Below, one piece after another: positions 1 through 15,131 of a stretch of 64,000 nt of DNA. Position 1 is the first letter of the stretch. The number at the start of each line of letters is the position of its first letter. The stretch comes from Longimicrobiales bacterium. Lineage in GTDB: Bacteria; Gemmatimonadota; Gemmatimonadetes; Longimicrobiales; Gaopeijiaceae. Both the position numbers and the translations under genes were made by a program. The notes under the pieces were generated by a model. The model was not told where the DNA came from, searched no databases, and worked only from the letters and a program-made list of their open reading frames with translations. The DNA is taken from contig CBDCKN010000003.1 in assembly GCA_965218295.1 (NCBI GenBank), positions 256,001-320,000 on the forward strand, read 5' to 3'.

Positions 1-765
1 GTCTACGCTGTGCACCAAAGATGGACTGACGTTGGGCTGCGCCGATCCGTACCCAAGGTTCTCGATCTTCTTGCGCACTCCTTTGTATCGCAAGGAATAA
101 AATAGAAATCGATTATCAATCCGGTTGGGATCGCGAATGGAGAAACGCCCAACTCGCTGGTTTAGTACCGCCGGAAGATCGCGATGCCGAACCATGGCGA
201 TATCGCCTATGTACCCGGTCATGGCGATGAGAATATCGTTGTGCTGAAGCTCAAACTCGCCAGCGTCTGAGGCAACCTGTGGCGACACAAATGAGCAGCC
301 GTCCATGATAAGGCTACCACTCTTCACGTTCTGTATTTTGACAACTGGGATGCCAGTATCAACCCAGTCGCTGCTCTTAAACGCATATCCTGACCGTACG
401 GACGCCACATCGCCAAGACGCACAACATCAAACTGATCCACGATGTCCGGCTCCTCTACTGCCAGCAGCACCACATGCTCACGCTCGATCTTCTTTCGGA
501 ATTGGTCGGGTACGGCATCCCAGACGAACAGGTCTACCCGGAACGGCAGGTTGCTTTCCTCGAATGCTTCCTCAAGGTCGGAAACCCGGCTGGCTTGCTC
601 CGGCGTTGCGAAAACCACCATATCCAGATCAGACTGCGGGCGAGAGGTCCATTTGGCGCGGGATCCATAGACCCACACGGTCGTGTTCGGCAGATGCCGC
701 GCAAGCAGTGCCAGAACGGTTTGGCGCTGTTTGGCGGTAATATCGATCACCCCGTCCATCCCCAT
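1..765 (-). CDS. hsdS: Type I R-M specificity subunit with N-terminal MNT (minimal nucleotidyltransferase) domain; runs off the window edge
   Basis: Not in the ORF track because it is open at the edge. Manual translation from ATG 765 is stop-free to base 1: [48 protein letters not shown] (GSx10DxD)...LPFRVDL, then HsdS-type VRLGDVASVRSGYAFKS...DILIAMTG...NQRVGR...GSAQPNVS. Confidence 0.88.
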   Translation of the reverse strand, partial: MGMDGVIDITAKQRQTVLALLARHLPNTTVWVYGSRAKWTSRPQSDLDMVVFATPEQASRVSDLEEAFEESNLPFRVDLFVWDAVPDQFRKKIEREHVVLLAVEEPDIVDQFDVVRLGDVASVRSGYAFKSSDWVDTGIPVVKIQNVKSGSLIMDGCSFVSPQVASDAGEFELQHNDILIAMTGYIGDIAMVRHRDLPAVLNQRVGRFSIRDPNRIDNRFLFYSLRYKGVRKKIENLGYGSAQPNVSPSLVHSVD

Positions 766-1202
766 GCTTCCCCGCTCATCGTCTGATAGAGTCCGATGGC
801 GTCATCGATGAAGTCCGGTATTATCTCCAGGCAGTCTTGCGCCTTTGTGCCGTCGTAGTCATGAGAAGTACCGATGCGTGCGTCGACGTAGAGCCACCAC
901 TGCTCCAGCGGTGTAGAGAACAGATCGTTCTCGTAGGCAAGCCTGAAAATAGGCTTAGGACTGTTGGGAGGATCTGCGATGCCCAGTTCTTCGATGAGAT
1001 ATCGCTTTAGTACCTTCCACAAGCAGTCATAGCAGGTCTCAAAACGCTGGATCACCGACTCAGCGATGCCTTCCTGGTTCAGGACAGGCAGAGAGGTATC
1101 CAGGTTCCGGTAGTTGGCATGCTGTTCCTCAAGACGTGCAAGGGACATTTGAAACTTTTCATATTCGATCATGGCTAATGCCTCTGCTCCTTCACGCTTC
1201 AT
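747..1202 (-). CDS. HEPN-domain protein (HI0074/nucleotidyltransferase substrate-binding family), putative RNase toxin
   Basis: Contains [11 protein letters not shown] and RIGTSHDY (Rx4HxY). Overlaps the hsdM stop by 4 nt and the MNT-hsdS start by 19 nt. Confidence 0.85.
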
Positions 1203-2749
1203 TCATCGCTAGCGAATCCAAAGATCGTAAGATTGGCTTCGATGGCGTCGTCCAGCTTCGCGCCTTTGGCCTGTTGCTCGCGAAACTCGGCGACCAGTCG
1301 TTTCATCTTGTCCTCGAACGGCTCACCGTCGTCCTCTTGGGGCTCCACGCCGACATAGCGGCCAGGCGTCAGCACATGGCCGTGCCTACTCACCTCCTCC
1401 AGTGCCGTGCTCTTGCAAAAGCCGGGAATGTCGGCGTAGCCGTCGTCCTCCTCTCCCCTGCGCCAAGCATGGTAGGTGTCGGCGATGCGGGTAATGTCTT
1501 TGTCAGTAAGCTCGCGGTGCGTCCGGTCCACCATCCGGCCGAGCTTCCTCGCGTCGATGAACAGGATCTCGCCCTGGCGCTTGCGTCGGCGCGCCAGGAA
1601 CCACAGGCAGGCGGGAATCTGAGTCGAGTAGAAGAGCTGGCCCGGAAGGGCCACCATGCAGTCCACTAGCTCCGCCTCGATCAGGTTCTTCCGGATCTCT
1701 CCCTCACCCGACTGATTCGACGACATCGACCCGTTGGCGAGCACGAACCCCGCAACGCCCTTGGGCGCGAGGTGGTGGACCATGTGCTGGACCCATGCGA
1801 AGTTGGCGTTGCCCTTCGGCGGGATGCCGTAGCGCCAGCGCTTGTCCTCGACCAGCCTGTCGCCTCCCCAGTCCGAGACGTTAAACGGGGGATTGGCGAG
1901 GATGAAATCGGCCTTCAGGTCCGGATGGCGGTCGTTATAGAAGCTGTCGCCGTGGGCGATCTGTCCCCCAATGCCTCGTATGGCCAAGTTCATCTTCGCG
2001 AGCCGCCACGTCGTGTAATTCGACTCCTGCCCGTAGATCGAGATGTCGCCGCGCGCCTTGCCGCCGTTGCCGTTTCCGCTGGAGTGGGCGCGAATGAACT
2101 CGATCGACTGCACGAACATGCCCGAGGACCCGCAGCAGGGATCGTAGACCCGCCCCCGGTAGGGCTCCAGCATCTCGACGAGCAGCTTGACGACGCAACG
2201 CGGGGTATAGAACTCACCGCCCCTCTTGCCCTCGGCACTCGCGAACTGTGAGAGGAAGTACTCGTAGACGCGGCCGAGCACGTCTCGGGAGCGGGCTTCG
2301 GCGTCCCCGACGCGGATGTTGCCGATCATGTCGATCAACTGGCCGAGCCGCTGCTTGTCCAGGGCGGGCCGCGCGTAGTCCTTGGGCAGCACCTCCTTCA
2401 GCGCCGGGTTGTCGCGCTCGATCGCGGCCATGGCCCGATCGACGGTCTGTCCAATGGTCGACTGCCTCGCCTGGGCCTTCAGGTGTGGCCAGCGGGCTTC
2501 CCGCGGCACCCAGAAGATGTTTTCGGCGATGTACTCGTCGCGGTCCTCTGCGGCCTCGTCCCCCCACTTTGCCAACACCGCCTCGTGGCGCTCCTCGAAG
2601 GCGTCCGAGATGTACTTCAGAAAGATGAGCCCGAGCACGACATGCTTGTACTCGGCGGCATCCATCGAGCCGCGTAGCGCATCGGCCATCGCCCACAGCT
2701 CGGCCTCGTAGCCGGTCGTGGCTCCGCTGTCGTTTTGCGTGCCTGCCAT
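1199..2749 (-). CDS. hsdM: Type I R-M DNA methyltransferase subunit
   Basis: [20 protein letters not shown]-terminus, [16 protein letters not shown] and NPPF motifs. Start trimmed to MAGTQ (2749); 2767 is an alternative. Confidence 0.95.
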
Positions 2750-2982: not shown

Positions 2983-4503
2983 TCACCGGCTCGGGCCATG
3001 ATCGCGCTCTGGGCCGCGCCGGCGCATCATCTCCAGCGCGCGCGCAACGTCTCGGCGAGCTTCTTGTAGTATTCGGCCAAGCGTGTCATCCGTCCGTCGA
3101 GCCGCTCGATTTGCCTCTGCAAGGTTTCGCTCTGCACGGCCTGCCGCTCGACACGCCGCCTCAAGGCTTCGACCTGCTCTGAGTGCCGCCGCTGTTCCGT
3201 CTCGCACTGCGCGGACAACCTCTCCAAGGCCGCCGTCAACTGCCGTTCCAACTCGGTCATACAGCCTCCTCACTCTCTCGACAGCTTCACGTAGGGCCGA
3301 TCGCGCACGGTCCAGGGCGGATAGGCCAGCGTGCCGGCCGGCAGCACCACGAACCGCTCCCCCTCGATCTCCCGGAGCGCGATCCCCCAAGTGTCCTTCT
3401 CGAACTGAGCCAGCGTCTGCCGGGCCTCCTCGATGTCCCGGTCGAGTTCGGCGACCGTCTCGATCCGGACTTGGATGCGCGTCCACAACCAGTGCATCGT
3501 CGCCCAGCTTCCGCCGCAGATACCGAGCCAGAGGCTCAGGCCGACCACCAGGGGCCGGAGCCATGCCCTCAGCAACAGCGCGCGCATCCGCCCAGTCGCC
3601 GCCTCCGTATCGCGCTCGATGGTACGCAGCGCGTTCCTCGCGACGCGCCGCGAGTTCTCGCCAAGCCGATCGAGCTCGTCCGCGGTCAATCCCTCGATCT
3701 CCCGGCGTTCCCTCTCCAGCCGCTTCCGCAGCCGGTCGGTCAAGCCGCTCACGCTTGAAGTCATGGGCGTACAGCTCTCCTTTCAGACGCCACCGGTCCC
3801 CGGTCGCGGGGTACAGCGCCGTCAGGTAGTCCTTTCCTTGGCGCGGCACTTCGAGGCCCGCCTCCTGCAAGGCGGTGACGACATCGGCCCGGTTCCGCAC
3901 CGTGCCGTGCTCGACACGCTGGAGCAGGTAGTCGTGGATCAGGTCGCGGGGGGAGGATTCGAGCCCGAGCCCGGCCCGCAGCCGCGCCGCCTCGATGTAG
4001 GCGCGGTGTCCGGGTTGCTGCACCCTGGCCCGCGCCGGATCGTCGGGCCGGCTCCAGCCGTGTTCGGCGTTGACGGCGTCGCGCAGCGGACCGAAGGTCT
4101 TCTCCCAGCCGGGCGGCGCGATGTTGAGGCTCCGGCCGGTCTCCAGGTCGCAGCGCGCGGCCAGGACATGCACGTGAGCGCCGCCGCCGCGCTCGCGATG
4201 CAACACGGCCGCCCAGGCGTAGCGGTCGGGCTCCAGCCTCGCCCAGGCTGTCCGCTCGAACTCATCCAGAACCTCGCCGATCTGGTCGTCGGTCGGAGCG
4301 TCTTCCGGCGCCCAGGCGATTACGCCCGATGTGTACTTGTGCTCGAACGCCAGCGCGTCCGCCACGGCGGCCACCTGGTGGGGATTTCCCCGGAGGACCT
4401 CGACGCCTTCGCGCGGCTTCCCGGCCGCGTCCCGCCCACCGAGAAGGTAGTCGGCCGCCGCACGGGCCGAGCCGGTCCCGCGGGCCAGGAACTTAATGAG
4501 CAT
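2983..4503 (-). CDS. Relaxase, ColE1 MbeA/MobA-like
   Basis: [27 protein letters not shown] and [11 protein letters not shown] motifs. Lies downstream of mobC and contains nested mobB/mobD. Confidence 0.9.
3027..3260 (-). CDS. MbeD/MobD-like coiled-coil protein nested in the relaxase
   Basis: [15 protein letters not shown] start resembles MbeD. Its position matches the ColE1 mob layout. Confidence 0.7.
3270..3764 (-). CDS. MbeB/MobB-like mobilisation protein nested in the relaxase
   Basis: Coiled coil plus one TM segment in an alternate frame. Conserved in the second copy at 34809-35303. Confidence 0.75.
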   Translation of the reverse strand: MTSSVSGLTDRLRKRLERERREIEGLTADELDRLGENSRRVARNALRTIERDTEAATGRMRALLLRAWLRPLVVGLSLWLGICGGSWATMHWLWTRIQVRIETVAELDRDIEEARQTLAQFEKDTWGIALREIEGERFVVLPAGTLAYPPWTVRDRPYVKLSRE

Positions 4504-4831
4504 CGCGATCCGGGAACCCGACGGGGGCCAGCGCCGCGAGCGCCCGCTCGATGGCGATGAGGTGGCCGGTCACCTCGACGGCCTCGACCGCCCCCTTGTG
4601 GGTATTGGCCCAGCGGGCGATCTGGTTGAGGTTGTTGCCGATGCGCGCCAGCTCGCGGGTGCGCTCGCGCTCCACCTCGGCGTGCGGCACGGTCCAGGTG
4701 CGCACCCGGCCAACCGACCGGCGCACCAGATCCGACAGCGTCAAGCCTGCGGAACGCGCCTTGGCGTGCCACTCGGCACGCTCCGCTTCGCTGGCGCGGA
4801 TCTTCACCCACACGGCGCGTCCAGCGTTCAT
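4493..4831 (-). CDS. mobC: MobC relaxosome protein
   Basis: RHH-like N-terminus and ELARIGNNLNQIAR motif. Confidence 0.92.
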   Translation of the reverse strand: MNAGRAVWVKIRASEAERAEWHAKARSAGLTLSDLVRRSVGRVRTWTVPHAEVERERTRELARIGNNLNQIARWANTHKGAVEAVEVTGHLIAIERALAALAPVGFPDRDAH

Positions 4832-4877
4832 GACGTGCCGTTGCCGTTCGGGGGGTCCAGAGGGGGCACAGCCCCCC

Positions 4878-4932
4878 GCCAGCCCCTGCCGGGGACCCGC
4901 GAAGCGTGGGCCCCAAAGGGTATGCTGGCTTA
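4878..4932. other. Putative oriT (copy 1)
   Basis: Inverted repeat GCCAGCCCC...GGGTATGCTGGC ending in CTGGCTTA, like the ColE1 nic (TATACTGG^CTTA). Sits just upstream of mobC. Confidence 0.72.
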
Positions 4933-5135
4933 CGCGCCTTAGACGCGGCCGACAAGCTCGTGCGCCGCAGCTGCGGGCGCACCGAAGCTCGACGGAAATC
5001 GGGCGGCCCCCCGGTCCTCAACACGCCGACCGTCGAGGGCGAGCCGTTGCAGCTGTTTGGCGCGGAACGCCCCACTCGCCGCCTCCGCCCGCCCGCGCCG
5101 TGGCTCTCGGCCCCGGCATCCTCGCGCGGTTCCGC

Positions 5136-5366
5136 CTAAGCGCCGTCATCCCGGCTCTCCTCGATGCGCTCGCGCATCCATTCGTCCACCTCCCCCTCGA
5201 TCCAGCCCACGGCGCGCGATCCCAGCGAGACCGGGCGGGGGAAGCACCCCTGGTCCAGCCGCACATAGATCGTGCTCCGCGCCAGACCCGTGCGGGCCTT
5301 CACCTCCGGCAGCCGCAGGAACCGGGTCGGCGGGTTCGTTCTCTGTTCCATCGGTTGTTCACTCAT
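5136..5366 (-). CDS. AlpA family regulator/excisionase
   Basis: FLRLPEVKARTGLARSTIY...FPRPVSLGSRAVGW motif. Start at MSEQ. Confidence 0.92.
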   Translation of the reverse strand: MSEQPMEQRTNPPTRFLRLPEVKARTGLARSTIYVRLDQGCFPRPVSLGSRAVGWIEGEVDEWMRERIEESRDDGA

Positions 5367-5643
5367 CGCTCTGATCCTCCTCGTTCTCTTCGTGCGTGAC
5401 GTAGGCGTCCGGTGCCGATGGCGACGGGGGCGGCGCCCGCGGGCCACCCGAGCCCCCGTCGTAGTCGTCGATGAACGCCAGAACCCGGTCCGCCGTCCTC
5501 AGCGACATGGAGCGTCCGCCCTCGATCTGGCGCATCAGATTCGGATCGCCCAACGCCTTCATGCCGAACGTCGTCGGCCTCAGGCCCGTGCGCCCGAGGA
5601 AGGCGCTCACGCGCGAATTGAACTGCCGCTCCAGCGTCTCCAT
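5359..5643 (-). CDS. Cro-like HTH protein
   Basis: FLGRTGLRPTTFGMKALGDPNLMRQIEGGRS..LRTADRV. A homolog lies at 44147. Confidence 0.75.
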   Translation of the reverse strand: METLERQFNSRVSAFLGRTGLRPTTFGMKALGDPNLMRQIEGGRSMSLRTADRVLAFIDDYDGGSGGPRAPPPSPSAPDAYVTHEENEEDQSDE

Positions 5644-5790
5644 GCCCGAAACGTTGAGGAGCCGTCTTGGTGGACGTCAACCCTTAGGAAATCTCCTAAA
5701 GGCTTGTAGCGGCTAGAGATAGCCAGTACGGTACGCGAGCTGTTGGACACCGCCGCCAGTGGCATGGCGGACACCCCCTCCGCAGCGCTC
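5644..5790 (-). promoter_or_regulatory. Conserved leader with palindromic operator and TTGAC -35 (copy 1 of 3)
   Basis: Palindrome TTAGGAGATTTCCTAA followed by GGGTTGAC. Homologous to 31520-31675 and 44000-44146. Confidence 0.6.
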
Positions 5791-6071
5791 GCCAGAGGTT
5801 CCCGTCAAGGGTCTTGGAGATCGGTCGGGAGGCCGTCTGGTTGGGCGATAGTGAGGGAGGGAGACTGAGTAAGAACGGCCTCGTCGTTCTCCGCGAAGCG
5901 CTCGGGCAGGCTCCCCGTACTGAGCCGAGCCACGGAGACTACCTTCAGCGCATGGTCCAACGCGGCGATCCAATGATGGATCCCTTTGCCGAGAGCGGTG
6001 TGGGAGTGGCAAGGTCCATCCAATGCAGGCAATTCGGTCGCGTCATCGCTCCGACCGACCGGCCGGCTCCA

Positions 6072-7268
6072 TTAGGCCGCTCCGGTCGGCACCCACGGTG
6101 GCACTGCGCTACTGATGTATTCGCACCACGCCTGAAGGACTTCGGCGCGGCGCTCCAGCAGGTCGGATCGCTGATACGCCTGAACAACCCGGCTTCTCGG
6201 GACGTGGGCGAGGCAGGCTTCCGCGACCTCCGCCGGGACGCCCGATTCGGCCATCCACGACCGCGCGCTCGACCGGAACCCGTGCAGCGTCGAGTCCACC
6301 CCGGCACCCCGAAGCACGCGCCCCGGCGCGTTCACGGCCAGCGGCCCGCCCGACCTCGACGGAAACACCAGCGCCGACTCACCGGACAGCGCGCGCGCCC
6401 GTTCGAGCACATCGAGCGCGCCCGTGCTCAACGGCACGGTGAACTCCCGGCCCGCCTTCATCCTCAACGCCGGAATCGTCCACCGCGCCGACTCCAGGTC
6501 GATCTCATCCCAGCGCGCCCCGCGCGCCTCTCCGCCCCGAACGGCGGTCAGCACGATCAGTTCCACACACAACGCAGCCGCCGAGGGCGCATCCCCCAAC
6601 CGCCGGATCGCCCGGAGCGCCGTCCGGACCTCCTTGTGCGGAAGCGCGCGATAGTGCTCCGGCCCGGTGCCGTTCACCCTCGGCAGCGCCGCCACCGCCC
6701 GGTCCACCGGATTGTCCGGGCGGTAGTTCCGGCCGATGCACCAGCGAAAGACGGCGGAGATCCGGTGCCGGGCCTTCCGCCCGGCGGCGGGCTTCGAGTT
6801 CCAGATTGGTGTGAGGCAGCGGAGTACGTCCGCGCTCGTGATCCGGTCCGCAGGCTTGTCCAGCAGCGGGGCGGCATGCAGACGAAATGTCGACTCCCAC
6901 TGCTCGGGAAGCGGGCTCCCAGCCTTCCACGCGTCGCGGTGAAGCTCGATGGTCCTTTCGGCGGCATCGGCGAACGTCGGGACGCCGCGTCCTCCGCGCG
7001 GGTCTTGGCCCAAGCGGACGCCCCGGCTGTTGTCCAGCGCCTTCTGCCGGGCCTCGGCGAGCGTCACCTCGGGATACGGCCCGAGCCCGATCGAGGTGAG
7101 CCGTCCGTCGATCCTGACGCGTTGCCGCCACGTCTTCGTGATCCGGCCGCTAGCCGTCCGGTGGACCCGGAGACTCAGCCCCCGCCCGCCGCGTCCGTCG
7201 CCGTAGACTCCGGGTCGGCCGACCGTCCGAACGAACGCGGCGGTGAGTGTCCTCGGTCGCTTGGTCAT
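6072..7268 (-). CDS. P4-like tyrosine integrase with Arm DNA-binding domain
   Basis: YGDGRGGRGLSLRV..GLGPYPEVTLAEAR arm domain, LTAVRGGE, HGFRSS, LAH, AYQRSD. Start at MTKRPR. Confidence 0.95.
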   Translation of the reverse strand: MTKRPRTLTAAFVRTVGRPGVYGDGRGGRGLSLRVHRTASGRITKTWRQRVRIDGRLTSIGLGPYPEVTLAEARQKALDNSRGVRLGQDPRGGRGVPTFADAAERTIELHRDAWKAGSPLPEQWESTFRLHAAPLLDKPADRITSADVLRCLTPIWNSKPAAGRKARHRISAVFRWCIGRNYRPDNPVDRAVAALPRVNGTGPEHYRALPHKEVRTALRAIRRLGDAPSAAALCVELIVLTAVRGGEARGARWDEIDLESARWTIPALRMKAGREFTVPLSTGALDVLERARALSGESALVFPSRSGGPLAVNAPGRVLRGAGVDSTLHGFRSSARSWMAESGVPAEVAEACLAHVPRSRVVQAYQRSDLLERRAEVLQAWCEYISSAVPPWVPTGAA

Positions 7269-7739
7269 GGCTTCCTTCTTTGGTGGTGTATCACTTTGTG
7301 CCTCACTACATAAAGAAGAATACACCGGATGCCAATGGAATACAAGAGGACAGTTCTACCGGGCGTCACGCTGAAACCATTGCAATACAGGATGTTACGG
7401 GACTTCTAGTGGACTACTGTGGATCGCCTCGGATCATGACTGGAGAGTTCAACCAGGACTGCACGATCTGCCGCACTTGCCGTCCTACCATACCTGATGC
7501 TGCCGTGCTTAAAGGGCGAGAAAACGGCATCAAATGGCGGGACACGAAATGGCAACAGCCTGGGCTATCAGGCAATCGGGGCGAGGGCGGACCGGTCGGT
7601 GGCGCACTGGACAGGCTGCCCTATAGCGACTTGTAGTAGTCACGAATCTTGACGGCCATCAGAAGTCTGCGAGTAAGGGTTACCTCAGGGGGTTAAAGTG
7701 CCCGGAAAGGAGTGGTGGTCTCTGTTCTGGCTTTCGGGC

Positions 7740-8123: not shown

Positions 8124-9890
8124 ATGGCATTTCAGATTCCGATCACGATCAAGGAGGCGATCGACCACATTCACAACAACCGTTACCTGCTTCCGGCCAT
8201 TCAACGGGAGTTCGTTTGGCAGCCGTCTCAGATCGAACGGCTCTTCGACAGCCTCATGCGCGGCTATCCGATCGGATCGTTCCTGTTCTGGCGAGTCGAT
8301 CCCGAAACTGCGAAGGACTACAGGTTCTACAAGTTCATCACCGATTACGATCAACAGGAACCCCACAACCAACCCCATGGGGCGCCTGCGGCCGTGCCTG
8401 GCCTGAAGGCGGTGCTCGACGGGCAGCAACGCCTCACGGCGCTGAATGTCGGGCTGTGCGGGTCCGGTAAGTGGAAGCTTCCCCGCCTATGGTGGAAGAA
8501 CCGGTGCGCTTGGCCGGAACGACAGCTCCACCTCAATCTCCTCGCGCCTCCGACGGAGGACGAAGAGGAACTCTCGTACAAGTTCCGCCTCCTCCCGCCC
8601 AAACCTGACCCGCAGGGCTGCAAACACTGGTCCCTGCACGCCCAACGCCGGAACGACCACGAATATTGGTACCGCGTGGGAGATATCCTCGGTTTCGAGG
8701 ATGCCGCGGACCTGATCGACGTCGTCTTCGACCTTGGGCTCGTGGATACAAAGAAGCCTCTGAGAATGCTCACCAGGCTCCACCACGTCGTTCACAGCGA
8801 TGGCATCGTCTCGGCCTACGAAGAGGCAGACCAGGACCCCGAAAAGGTCCTCAACATCTTCGTTCGCACCAACAGCGGCGGCACGTCGCTGTCCTACTCG
8901 GACATGCTCCTCAGCATGGTAGTGGCCCAGTGGGAAGACGCGCGCAAGGAGATTCACGAGCTCGTTGACGAAATCAGGGGCATCGGCAGGGGCTTCTCTT
9001 TCAATCACGACTTCGTGCTTAAGGCTTGCCTGATGCTCGGCGACAGCGACAGCATCCGATTCAAGGTCGTGAACTTCAGAAAGTCGAAGATCGGCACCCT
9101 GCAGCACCAATGGCATCATATCAGGAGAGCCATCACAGAAACGGTGGAGCTCGCATCCTCGTTCGGCTACTCTGGACAAAGTCTGGCATCGGCAAACGCC
9201 CTGTTGCCGATCGCCTACCATCTCCACCGCCGGCAGCAATCGTTGGGTGCCGAGGACCTCAAGACGATTCGCGACTGGCTGATTCGCTCGCTGCTGAAGC
9301 GCGGGATATGGAGCAGCGGCGCTGACAGCCTGCTGATGGCAATCCGCAAGGCAATGCAGCGGAGTTCCTCCCACAACGGTTTTCCGGCTCGCGCGATCGA
9401 GGAGGAGATGCGTACGCGTGGCAAGGGGCTGACTTTCGACGATGAGGAACTCCAAGACCTGGCCGACGCCGCGTACGATGGAAGGGCCTACAGCCTCCTG
9501 TTTCTCCTGTACGATTTCGTCGACGTAGCCACGAACCGCTTCCACATCGACCATGTCTTCCCGCGCGCGCTGATGACCCCGGCGCGCCTGAAGAAGGCCG
9601 GCGTCCACGAGGAAAAGATCCCCGAGTATCTGGATCGGGTGAACCGCCTGGCCAACCTCCAACTCCTCGAGGGAAAGATTAACATGATCAAGGGCGCCAA
9701 GCTGCCTGCCGACTGGCTGCGCGAGCAGTACTCCGAGGAAACAAGGCTGAATCACTGCCACCTGCACGATCTGGGCGACGTTCCAACCGAAGTCACGGGT
9801 TTCCTGGACTTCTACGAGACACGCCGAACCCGTATCCTGGACAAGCTGCGCCGCCTACTCGTTTCCGACAGCACGGAGAACCCGGACTAG
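8124..9890 (+). CDS. GmrSD-type (DUF262 + DUF1524/HNH) modification-dependent restriction protein
   Basis: LPAIQREFVW, LDGQQRLT, IFVRTNSGG and C-terminal HIDHVFP...NRLANLQLL. Confidence 0.9.
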   Translation: MAFQIPITIKEAIDHIHNNRYLLPAIQREFVWQPSQIERLFDSLMRGYPIGSFLFWRVDPETAKDYRFYKFITDYDQQEPHNQPHGAPAAVPGLKAVLDGQQRLTALNVGLCGSGKWKLPRLWWKNRCAWPERQLHLNLLAPPTEDEEELSYKFRLLPPKPDPQGCKHWSLHAQRRNDHEYWYRVGDILGFEDAADLIDVVFDLGLVDTKKPLRMLTRLHHVVHSDGIVSAYEEADQDPEKVLNIFVRTNSGGTSLSYSDMLLSMVVAQWEDARKEIHELVDEIRGIGRGFSFNHDFVLKACLMLGDSDSIRFKVVNFRKSKIGTLQHQWHHIRRAITETVELASSFGYSGQSLASANALLPIAYHLHRRQQSLGAEDLKTIRDWLIRSLLKRGIWSSGADSLLMAIRKAMQRSSSHNGFPARAIEEEMRTRGKGLTFDDEELQDLADAAYDGRAYSLLFLLYDFVDVATNRFHIDHVFPRALMTPARLKKAGVHEEKIPEYLDRVNRLANLQLLEGKINMIKGAKLPADWLREQYSEETRLNHCHLHDLGDVPTEVTGFLDFYETRRTRILDKLRRLLVSDSTENPD

Positions 9891-10362: not shown

Positions 10363-10542
10363 CGCTGATTGGGAATTTCCACCCCGACCGACGGGCGACA
10401 CCCGTGCGGCGGGCGGCCCCAGTGCGGCCGACCAGCCATCAGGACGCGCCGCCAGGACACAAAGACGGGCAAGCCAGCCTCCCGTGACCGCCGCCCGAGT
10501 GCGGGCCTCAAGGGGGGATCGAAGGGGGGCGGAGCCACCCTC

Positions 10543-10596
10543 GCCAGCCCCTGCCGGGGACCCGCGAAGCGTGGCCCCAAAGGGTAAGCTGGCTCA
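10543..10596. other. Putative orphan oriT (copy 2)
   Basis: Near-identical to 4878-4932. Only the first codons of a mobC-like start remain near 10420-10440. Confidence 0.62.
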
Positions 10597-10747: not shown

Positions 10748-11623
10748 CTATAGCAGTCCCCAAATCCACTTGATCATGAATCCAAGAATCAAACAGGCAA
10801 TCAAATAGACCGTGCCCCAAAAGTAACTGGGACGGTCATGAAAAAGGCTCCTGAAGACATAGTGCAAGAGGCCAACTATGGCTTTAGTCTGGGCTTCGTC
10901 GAAGCCAGCTTCCTTGAGGTGGCGGTAGTAGGGGTGGTGGTAGGGTTCGTCTGGATCTTCAAACACGACGTCAACTATGGCTTCGGCCTGAGCTTCTTTG
11001 AAGCCGGCGGTATTGAGGATACGTCGGGCTTCCTGGACTCTGTCCTTTCTGTCCCGGAACTGGTGGAGGCCGGACGTCGGCCAATCAGTCTTGTGTCCGT
11101 AGGTGCTCAGGCACAAGGCATCAACTATGGCTTCGGCCTGGGCTTTCTTGAAGCCGTAATTCCTAAGGTAGCTTCTGGCGTTCATACCTTCAAATCCGGG
11201 ATCGTTTTCTTCAGATTGGAGCCCGTGAACGAACAAGGCATCAACTATGGCTTCGGCATCGTCCTGGAAGAAACTTTCACTGAGGGTGCGGCTGTGGATT
11301 TTGTGCCGGTCTTCGGTCAAGACGTCAACTAAGGATTCGGCCTGGGCTTCGTCGAAGCCGGCGTTCTTGAGGAGATATGTGTTGGCTCTATAGGCTTCGT
11401 CGGGATCTTCAAACATGACGTCAACTATGGCTTCGACCTTGATCTTGGCGAAGGAGGCGGCGGTGAGTGTACGGCGAGCTTTCCGGGCTTTCGTGGCCTT
11501 GGACCATTGGTCGTCACGGATGATGGAAGTCAAGGTGACGTCAACTATAGTTTTGGCCTTGGCCTCGGTGAAGCCGGCGGCCTTTAGTGTGCGGCGTATC
11601 TTTGAGCGACCATAAAAATACAC
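10748..11623 (-). CDS. Tandem-repeat membrane-anchored protein (repeats resemble the DUF1640/CCDC90 head motif)
   Basis: About 7 repeats of LxxAGFxEAQAEAIVD plus a C-terminal TM helix. GTG start at 11623 follows an AAAGGGG RBS. Confidence 0.7.
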   Translation of the reverse strand: MYFYGRSKIRRTLKAAGFTEAKAKTIVDVTLTSIIRDDQWSKATKARKARRTLTAASFAKIKVEAIVDVMFEDPDEAYRANTYLLKNAGFDEAQAESLVDVLTEDRHKIHSRTLSESFFQDDAEAIVDALFVHGLQSEENDPGFEGMNARSYLRNYGFKKAQAEAIVDALCLSTYGHKTDWPTSGLHQFRDRKDRVQEARRILNTAGFKEAQAEAIVDVVFEDPDEPYHHPYYRHLKEAGFDEAQTKAIVGLLHYVFRSLFHDRPSYFWGTVYLIACLILGFMIKWIWGLL

Positions 11624-14719: not shown

Positions 14720-15077
14720 GGGATCGTCCCGACGGATATTGACATGCGCCGCGTCGGTGCGGTCCGACCACTACGCGGCCAGCGCTTTGGGATCAACATT
14801 GCCTGGTTTTCCACGGTGAGCCTGTAGGGCTGTTCGCAGCGCAGACTTTGCTCGTGTGTCCTCGGCGAGTTCCCCATTGATTTGGCCGACGAGACCTCTA
14901 GCGGCCTCTCCTGGTCCGCGTCCCCTCAACCGACCCCAGCAGCTGCCTGCCGCCATATGTCCTTCGTGTGGCGCTCGACTCAGGACGCACCGGCAAGAGG
15001 GACGGGGGGCGAGCCCCCCGCCCGCGAACTCCGCCGGAGCGCGGGCCTCAGGGGGGATCGAAGGGGCGGAGTCCCTC

Positions 15078-15131
15078 GCCAGCCCCTGCCGGGGACCCGC
15101 GAAGCGTGGCCCCAAAGGGTAGGCTGGCTCC
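15078..15131. other. Putative orphan oriT (copy 3)
   Basis: Near-identical core to copies 1 and 2. Its flank 14980-15075 resembles the mobC leader at 36370-36465. Confidence 0.62.

Follow-up and report, generated by a model that had tools for sequence, protein, structure and literature searches.

A type I restriction-modification (R-M) operon of a Longimicrobiales bacterium carries a HEPN toxin gene whose antitoxin, a minimal nucleotidyltransferase (MNT), is fused in frame to the N terminus of the specificity subunit HsdS. The window, i.e., the whole 64,000-nucleotide stretch of DNA that was analysed (G000:C3:256001-320000), holds this operon at its left edge on the minus strand; the operon was completed by extending into the rest of contig C3. 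The fusion, written MNT::HsdS below, is real and common, and it arose with at least three MNT lineages. The HEPN/MNT pair may be a type VII toxin-antitoxin (TA) module that gives restriction a backup abortive layer, a reading that we consider plausible, if slightly short of probable.

The genes run in the order hsdM, HEPN, MNT::hsdS, and hsdR, all on the minus strand, and each overlaps the next. hsdM (1199..2749) encodes a 516-aa type I methyltransferase (PF02384, E 8.5e-107; PF12161, E 9.4e-29; PADLOC MTase_I). The HEPN gene (747..1202) overlaps hsdM by 4 nt (ATGA at 1199-1202) and encodes, from the overlapping ATG, a 151-aa protein of the HI0074/PF08780 (NTase_sub_bind) type (PF08780, E 1e-20); its relatives start near Met11 (window 1172), downstream of that ATG. 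MNT::hsdS starts at 765, giving a 19-nt overlap with the HEPN end. Its 5' part occupies 1..765, and the gene ends at G000:C3:255137, 863 nt left of the window. The complete protein has 542 aa, no internal stop, and the architecture MNT-TRD1-TRD2, in which TRD denotes a target recognition domain. The MNT domain (aa 1-100; 466..765) is an HI0073-like pol-beta minimal nucleotidyltransferase (PF18765, E 6e-10; PF01909, E 4e-6; structure 1no5, E 2e-15, template modelling score 0.86). It is followed by a linker (aa 101-108; 442..465) of low model confidence and then by TRD1 with the beginning of the central conserved region (1..432; PF01420, E 4e-13, aa 112-247; PADLOC Specificity_I; folds 1yf2 and 1ydx). 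hsdR (C3:255140-251991, minus strand; 1049 aa; TIGR00348 above cut-off) overlaps the MNT::hsdS stop by 4 nt. The locus is thus a type I R-M system, with an intact hsdM, a two-TRD hsdS with its conserved regions, and hsdR in one operon. The source genome has a single copy of such a HEPN and a single copy of such an MNT. An earlier reading of the window from its letters alone (the sequence-only reading) had described the order hsdM-HEPN-MNT::HsdS, the 4-nt overlap, an Rx4HxY motif, and a stop-free fusion open reading frame (ORF); open reading frames and Pfam searches confirmed each of these. Its remark that the plain ORF list omits the fusion was also correct, because the ORF runs off the window; it was recovered when open ends were allowed. 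The leftward extension that it had proposed yielded the rest of hsdS and the 1049-aa hsdR.

The stop or frameshift between MNT and HsdS that the same reading had named as a danger was looked for and is absent. Logan contigs bridge the MNT-TRD1 junction with 0 gaps in three of four runs (X1, X3, and X7, from three studies), one of which may be the source sample; among the X2 pieces listed, none lies across the junction. These gapless contigs and the numerous fused homologs rule out an assembly artefact or a frameshift. In the AlphaFold model, the MNT domain is followed by a linker with a predicted local distance difference test (pLDDT) score below 50 and then by a normal HsdS; the G-loop residues 38-43, around W39, also score below 50. 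Foldseek matched the fusion to HsdS structures and to HI0073 as separate regions. A hidden separate hsdS start was considered and rejected as a general feature. A GTG preceded by a Shine-Dalgarno-like run stands at codon 109 of this copy, but of the 56 fused loci scored only 18 have a start so preceded in the linker window, its position differing from locus to locus, and 10 lack any start codon there (7 further loci were unparsed). An internal hsdS start is thus not conserved among fused loci, and the GTG at codon 109 may serve in this copy. Linkers vary freely among fused loci and often end like the start of an unfused HsdS (xAGEW vs MAGEW). The PADLOC model PDLC03138 'Specificity_I' covers the MNT stretch (aa 6-126); MNT-extended HsdS proteins are therefore already present in R-M databases. 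A promoter scan of the locus was uninformative, and two RNA runs contained only 0.05 of the sequence words.

In class I HepT/MntA pairs, the MNT AMPylates a tyrosine of an RNase; the HEPN protein belongs to PF01934 or PF08780 and carries RX4HXY, and the MNT belongs to PF01909 and carries GSX10DXD (PMC7641770). The closest characterised relative, a PF08780-like Legionella pair, is ATP-dependent (PMC11586414). Both motifs are intact in the window. The HEPN protein has PF08780 above cut-off and RIGTSHDY, an Rx4HxY motif as defined in PMC7641770 (855..878, minus strand), with a TIGR01987 score of 50.9, under the cut-off of 55.8. The MNT domain scores 27.7 bits for PF01909 (cut-off 21) and 39.5 for PF18765 (cut-off 26.9) and carries GSx10DxD (aa 34-48, GSRAKWTSRPQSDLD; 622..666, minus strand); its NF047752 MntA score is 37.8, under the cut-off of 60. 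Since class I pairs are two small stand-alone genes and the MNT here is fused to HsdS, the pair is a variant and not a plain class I HepT/MntA member. The toxin-antitoxin interpretation already given by the sequence-only reading holds on these motifs. The key HEPN residues are Q52/E55 and R109-x4-H114-x-Y116, of which R109, H114, and Y116 are invariant in alignment A4. When the protein was aligned to HI0074 (1jog) and to the Legionella HEPN (8xdj), Q52/E55 fell on Q44/E47, which belong to the metal site of the Legionella protein. The residue predicted to receive AMP is Tyr116. When a HEPN dimer was modelled together with the fusion, a complex was weakly supported (0.56 vs 0.00 for the best control; run agreement at least 0%; partner pLDDT at least 83). 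Of the solved pairs, 116 of 157 attained the mark used, as did 2 of 215 mismatched pairs; 18 of these solved pairs and both mismatches did so at 0.60 or less. The score may reflect mere likeness because HEPN/MNT is a textbook pair with solved relatives.

The fusion is widespread. An MNT-only search among proteins of 298-949 aa matched 1,276 clusters of 1,398 candidates, and PF01420 was found in 117 of the best 120 listed. A plasmid search recovered the same gene order and fusion on pZMOB01 of the cultured Zymomonas mobilis ATCC 10988. With the Zymomonas MNT as the query, 145 further long proteins were matched (PF01420 in 118 of 120 listed), named from Xanthomonas, Pseudomonas, Ferrovum, Nitrosomonas, Methylobacter, and others. 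RefSeq labels such proteins 'restriction endonuclease subunit S'. GSx10DxD was present in 240 of 240 listed long MNT matches. A scan of GTDB gave at least 554 confirmed loci, the best 80 of which form the GTDB set. In that set, 46 MNTs were fused to HsdS, 24 were in free pairs, and 3 were free with an hsdM fragment; the rest comprised 3 unfused or broken within an hsd locus, 2 fused to other ORFs, 1 fusion with a stop in the MNT, and 1 short match. The fused share is biased upward because loci were ranked by likeness to the window MNT. As the synteny survey proposed in the sequence-only reading required, the fusion is no singleton: HEPN lies directly upstream in 42 of the 46 fused loci, and a near-full hsdM lies within 6 kb in 40. 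Searching with HEPN instead, 15 of 80 metagenome loci were fused, and free pairs made up 44 of 67 scored MNTs. Among 400 genomes of the same phylum, 19 of 54 MNT matches were fused (in 17 genomes), 18 of them with HEPN. Anchoring on the central region of HsdS, the best 150 representatives included 52 that start with MNT, 39 without it (one an hsdM chimera), and 59 fragments, i.e., a classifiable total of 91. No MNT match was found in viral contigs and phage genomes, no HEPN was found with the window query in 40 relatives, and a weak search for MNT fusions above 950 aa found none.

The 52 MNT-bearing HsdS proteins fall by motif into three MNT subfamilies (28, 14, and 8 members, plus 2 partial), five rows having been reassigned by eye. 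In a tree of 61 chosen rows, a single clade of fused MNTs was rejected (approximately unbiased test, p 3.4e-5), and at least six changes were forced on starred branches; this MNT tree does not separate fusion from fission. A HEPN+MNT tree shows about 20 switches between the fused and the free state. The hsdM of fused loci is at least 47% identical to that of the window, with a median of 80% (65 of 80 loci scored), and the loci therefore belong to one R-M lineage. Near-identical operons occur in metagenome-assembled genomes (MAGs) of many phyla.

One residue tracks the fusion. W39 (codon 649..651, minus strand) lies within GSx10DxD in the G-loop, which is described as solvent-exposed in the Legionella paper (PMC11586414), and free relatives mostly have G at this position. 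Its invariance in 148 fused proteins is biased because both queries carried W. It was present in 40 of 46 fused vs 0 of 26 free MNTs of the GTDB set, in 15 of 15 fused vs 1 of 44 free MNTs of the HEPN-found set, and in 26 of 28 fused MNTs of its own subfamily in the HsdS-anchored set. The same-phylum set had it in 10 of 10 fused MNTs of the subfamily, yet also in 3 of 9 free ones. The other two MNT subfamilies are fused without W (0 of 9 in the same-phylum set and 0 of 22 in the HsdS-anchored set). On a HEPN+MNT tree built without the W39 column, there were 8 independent pairs on supported branches, 6.8 running the same way and 0.0 the opposite way (median p 0.016). The MNT-only tree gave 4 supported pairs (p 0.25); it was the HEPN+MNT tree that brought the association to significance. 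On that tree, eight further columns failed the same test. The HEPN residues D133/G137/Q140 seemed linked to fusion and were rejected as a clade effect after failing in independent pairs. A comparison of HsdS for fusion-specific residues, made without phylogenetic control, singled out only T315, M310, and the linker, and no column is convincing. As W39 tracks fusion across sets, this MNT subfamily has one adaptation to the fused state.

The pair bears signs of function. Of the 58 fused loci whose HEPN match is at least 100 aa long, 57 retain Rx4HxY; the split HEPN of L054 falls below that length. In fused loci, the ratio of nonsynonymous to synonymous substitution rates (dN/dS) is about 0.19 in each gene (MNT, 78 pairs; HEPN, 53 pairs), indicating purifying selection. 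Free pairs gave higher values (0.55 and 0.82) but from only 17 and 19 pairs of mostly saturated comparisons, and no interpretation was drawn. Damage to the MNT goes with damage to the toxin: L019 has a stop in the MNT and has lost the HEPN His, L222 retains only a HEPN tail with the MNT DxD changed to DxN, and L114 is an orphan HEPN without the motif His. The pair is likely live on this pattern, with the free pair L143 running in the opposite direction. HEPN was lost while MNT::HsdS was kept in 4 of the 46 fused loci, two of which retain HEPN-tail remnants.

The pair also exists apart from HsdS. Acetobacter plasmids have hsdM-HEPN-MNT-hsdS-hsdR with MNT as a separate gene in the same slot, and such unfused MNT genes overlap hsdS by 1-4 nt. 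Free HEPN/MNT pairs occur on Zymomonas pZZ6.01 and on a Gemmobacter plasmid. Eleven of the 42 fused GTDB loci with HEPN were flagged for an absent HsdS C terminus; by eye, 3 were normal, 1 was degenerate, and 7 were truly cut with the toxin motif intact (L010, L013, L017, L022, L030, L034, and L040). The antitoxin probably does not need the R-M complex for neutralisation, to judge from these arrangements.

Taken as a backup layer of restriction, the module would work as follows. By analogy with characterised class I pairs, the MNT domain would use ATP to AMPylate Tyr116 of HEPN and thereby silence an RNase, and it would neutralise alone, without an assembled M2S complex. The fusion would tie the supply of antitoxin, and probably its stability, to HsdS synthesis. 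With supply so tied, it would be a failure of AMPylation, and not the sensing of an anti-restriction protein, that frees the toxin; under infection or stress, ATP could drop or newly made MNT::HsdS could be lacking. Spread of the cassette likely occurs at a cargo hotspot, by exchange of a block consisting of the hsdM tail, HEPN, and MNT::TRD1. Several observations weigh against this interpretation. An autonomous domain does not explain why W39 is associated with fusion (55 of 61 fused vs 1 of 70 free MNTs in the two sets combined), and a fused share of 52 of 91 among the nearest HsdS relatives is higher than tolerance alone would suggest. The free pair L143 has a truncated MNT with an intact HEPN motif. 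The 7 broken hsdS genes come from MAGs and may include assembly errors. No PADLOC defence model matched P0002, and the defence role of fused copies is drawn from context.

The sequence-only reading had proposed that tethering the antitoxin to HsdS couples neutralisation to the integrity of the R-M complex. Repeated fusion and W39 speak for this proposal; free and unfused pairs, the 7 of 42 broken hsdS genes, and the lack of a packed MNT-HsdS interface in the AlphaFold model and of a fusion-specific HsdS residue count against coupling. As a guard, HsdS would be the bait: binding of Ocr/ArdA/Stp-like anti-restriction proteins to the methyltransferase complex would inhibit, displace, or doom the tethered MNT, possibly by way of the G-loop with W39, and the unmodified HEPN RNase would abort the infection. 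We regard this as unlikely, though it deserves to be taken seriously. A variant, in which guarding is widespread and convergent, with HsdS as sensor, the AMP-transferase as switch, and W39 coupling them, and was tried on Cas3 too, seems to us improbable to the same degree. Either form would resemble PrrC/EcoprrI or Ronin, which serve as precedents, except that the switch would be an antitoxin enzyme. The recurrence of fusion points the same way, at least three MNT subfamilies sitting on one HsdS lineage with no single fused clade, as does the W39 association in the HEPN-found and HsdS-anchored sets, which were not picked by MNT sequence. One MNT::Cas3 stands behind the same HEPN type (L072), and a trigger by gain of inhibition is compatible with broken hsdS copies. 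Yet the toxins of R-M guards are almost always linked to hsd genes, whereas 24 of 80 loci found with the MNT query and 44 of 67 scored MNTs found with the HEPN query are free pairs. Two subfamilies are fused without W, W occurs in a third of the free same-subfamily MNTs of the same-phylum sample (the 3 of 9 above), and both the W39 loop and the linker have pLDDT below 50. HEPN has no fusion-linked column after tree control and HsdS no convincing one; fused MNTs are not more constrained overall than free ones (ratio 1.10 vs 1.15), and a fast switch would need covalent AMPylation to be reversed or bypassed.

A selfish origin has a smaller chance than guarding. The TA module would protect itself or its mobile element without a defence role: the toxin is upstream on the same transcript, and the antitoxin could not be dropped without losing the hsdS start, so that loss of the hsdS 5' end would be lethal. 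The operon adjoins relaxase and integrase genes here, mobC in Acetobacter oryzoeni, and lies on plasmids elsewhere; near-identical operons cross many phyla, and where the toxin is lost first (4 of 46), HsdS is left with the MNT as a lasting extension. The lock, however, spans only about 300 bp, and hsdS breaks downstream of it are tolerated. The related suggestion of the sequence-only reading, that the R-M cargo is made addictive, is weak because the N-terminal antitoxin survives such breaks. Moreover, the window mobility genes were matched in the flanks of only 3 of 61 fused loci (a weak test), and fusion to a stable subunit with covalent silencing should lower post-segregational killing (cf. 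PMC13000451). Least probable, in our judgement, is neutral read-through, in which a TA cassette lands in the cargo hotspot such that its stop codon and the start of hsdS overlap, and chance indels repeatedly fuse the frames. The short overlaps of unfused copies, the MAGEW-like linker ends, the fusions of MNT to unrelated ORFs (L072 and L075), and the roughly 20 alternations between states are as expected from such a process; the prevalence of fusion among HsdS relatives, the ratio of 2 fusions elsewhere to 46 with HsdS in the GTDB set, and the W39 association are not.

The hsd operons of this lineage behave as a cargo hotspot. The hsdM-HEPN gap exceeds 150 nt in 29 of 46 fused loci and the hsdS-hsdR gap exceeds 250 nt in 31 of 32; the cargo at operon junctions includes genes labelled by eye as HicAB-like, Fic-like, and additional HEPN-MNT. 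In contigs of 2 runs, the hsdM tail is joined to the hsdS central region, skipping HEPN-MNT-TRD1, and in contigs of 2 runs MNT is joined to that region, skipping TRD1; the letters between the joined parts are not known. P0003-P0005 have MNT-TRD1 in common and differ in TRD2, and together with the skip-joining contigs they fit block exchange by recombination. Short repeats of the hsdM 3' end lie between cargo genes in the hsdM-hsdS slot of L009, L014, L013, and L040.

Upstream of the operon, a mobility module (2983..7325, minus strand) contains a relaxase (2983-4503; PF03432) and a tyrosine integrase (6072-7325; PF00589, PF22022, and PF13356). Two small ORFs of this module are putatively mobC-like and AlpA-like. 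All in the same orientation as hsdM, the genes for the integrase, the small regulator, the mobC-like protein, and the relaxase make up an integrative mobilisable element. An 85% copy of the relaxase region lies at another place on C3; no att pair was identified around the element, and no tRNA was found in the window. Three related direct repeats of 54-105 nt, 91-96% identical, lie at about 4877-4930, 10491-10595, and 15031-15130; the first is just upstream of the mobC-like gene and possibly oriT-like. Short repeats also occur at about 10890-11435, and a GmrSD-family gene (8124-9890, plus strand; PF03235, weak PF07510) adjoins the integrase end of the element. Just past hsdR, a 1,074-nt partial insertion sequence (L001:7657-8730) with many near-identical copies on C3 abuts the operon end.

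Related fusions were seen alongside. In a Nitrospira MAG (L072:5594-9541), HEPN is followed by the same MNT in frame with a type I-C Cas3 (941 aa) and then by cas5c; this is a single case, with none more among fusions above 950 aa, and the 941-aa length class was not searched for it. In L075, the MNT is fused to an unrelated downstream ORF. L057:5959-8374 has stacked cassettes, in which an MNT of a second family, accompanied by its own HEPN, is joined to HsdS; such stacking also occurs in P0008-P0014, P0017, P0025, P0035, and P0048, which include HsdS proteins beginning with two MNT domains. In some fused HsdS proteins (P0009, P0053, P0061, and others; P0026, P0083, and P0089), a PF04480/PF18741 or PF01541 domain is inserted in the central conserved region.

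Several known systems share parts of this arrangement. Class I HepT/MntA pairs (S. oneidensis SO_3166/SO_3165, PMC7641770; Legionella 8xdj/8xeo, PMC11586414; HI0074/HI0073, 1jog/1no5) likewise have a PF08780 HEPN beside a PF01909 MNT; here, unlike there, the antitoxin is an HsdS domain, the toxin gene is upstream, both lie inside the hsd operon, and W replaces what is mostly G. PrrC/EcoprrI is likewise a HEPN nuclease gene within a type I R-M operon, but PrrC is an ABC-ATPase-HEPN protein held inactive by R-M proteins (PMC3710099, PMC12707154), whereas the window has a stand-alone 151-aa HEPN, which had no PADLOC hit, with its own enzymatic antitoxin and no ATPase, in a pair that is also found free; the ABC-ATPase fused to HEPN that defines PrrC/RloC is absent. 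In Ronin (bioRxiv 10.1101/2023.04.06.535777), a toxin is also linked to hsdMS, and its release by anti-restriction proteins is proposed; RonA is a 61-aa membrane-type toxin, always hsdMS-linked, in a locus without hsdR, while hsdR is intact here, the toxin belongs to the HEPN RNase type, and linkage is not obligatory. PMC3710099 already describes HEPN genes located in R-M operons as well as the notion of a guard, and TA and defence genes embedded in type I operons are likewise described (PMC12255303; Payne preprint, bioRxiv 10.1101/2024.01.29.577857). Embedded DarTG2 (PMC12255303) and the other cassettes (bioRxiv 10.1101/2024.01.29.577857) are co-oriented between hsd genes at a hotspot, as here; they are separate genes, and the available text mentions no antitoxin-Hsd fusion. 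In FhepTA (PMC13000451), too, the MNT switches between a free and a fused state and was stabilised by fusion; its fusion partner there is the toxin, whereas the MNT here is joined to HsdS, with the toxin as a protein of its own. The hsdSp knockouts of Z. mobilis ZM4 (PMC8432527) were considered as a natural test and set aside, pZM32 being a different system with no HEPN/MNT annotated. A literature search covering few subscription journals found no publication that describes an HsdS-fused MNT; the fusion is apparently catalogued in databases but unremarked.

Although type VII HEPN/MNT pairs are abundant, little is known of what triggers them or what they do, and the known guards of restriction systems are few. 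The family offers natural controls, with the MNT fused in Zymomonas ATCC 10988, unfused in Acetobacter, and free on another Zymomonas plasmid. W39 provides a single-residue handle, and R-M control of a type VII toxin is directly testable. For strains that carry the fusion, deletion of hsdS for better DNA uptake would remove the antitoxin as well and may be lethal.

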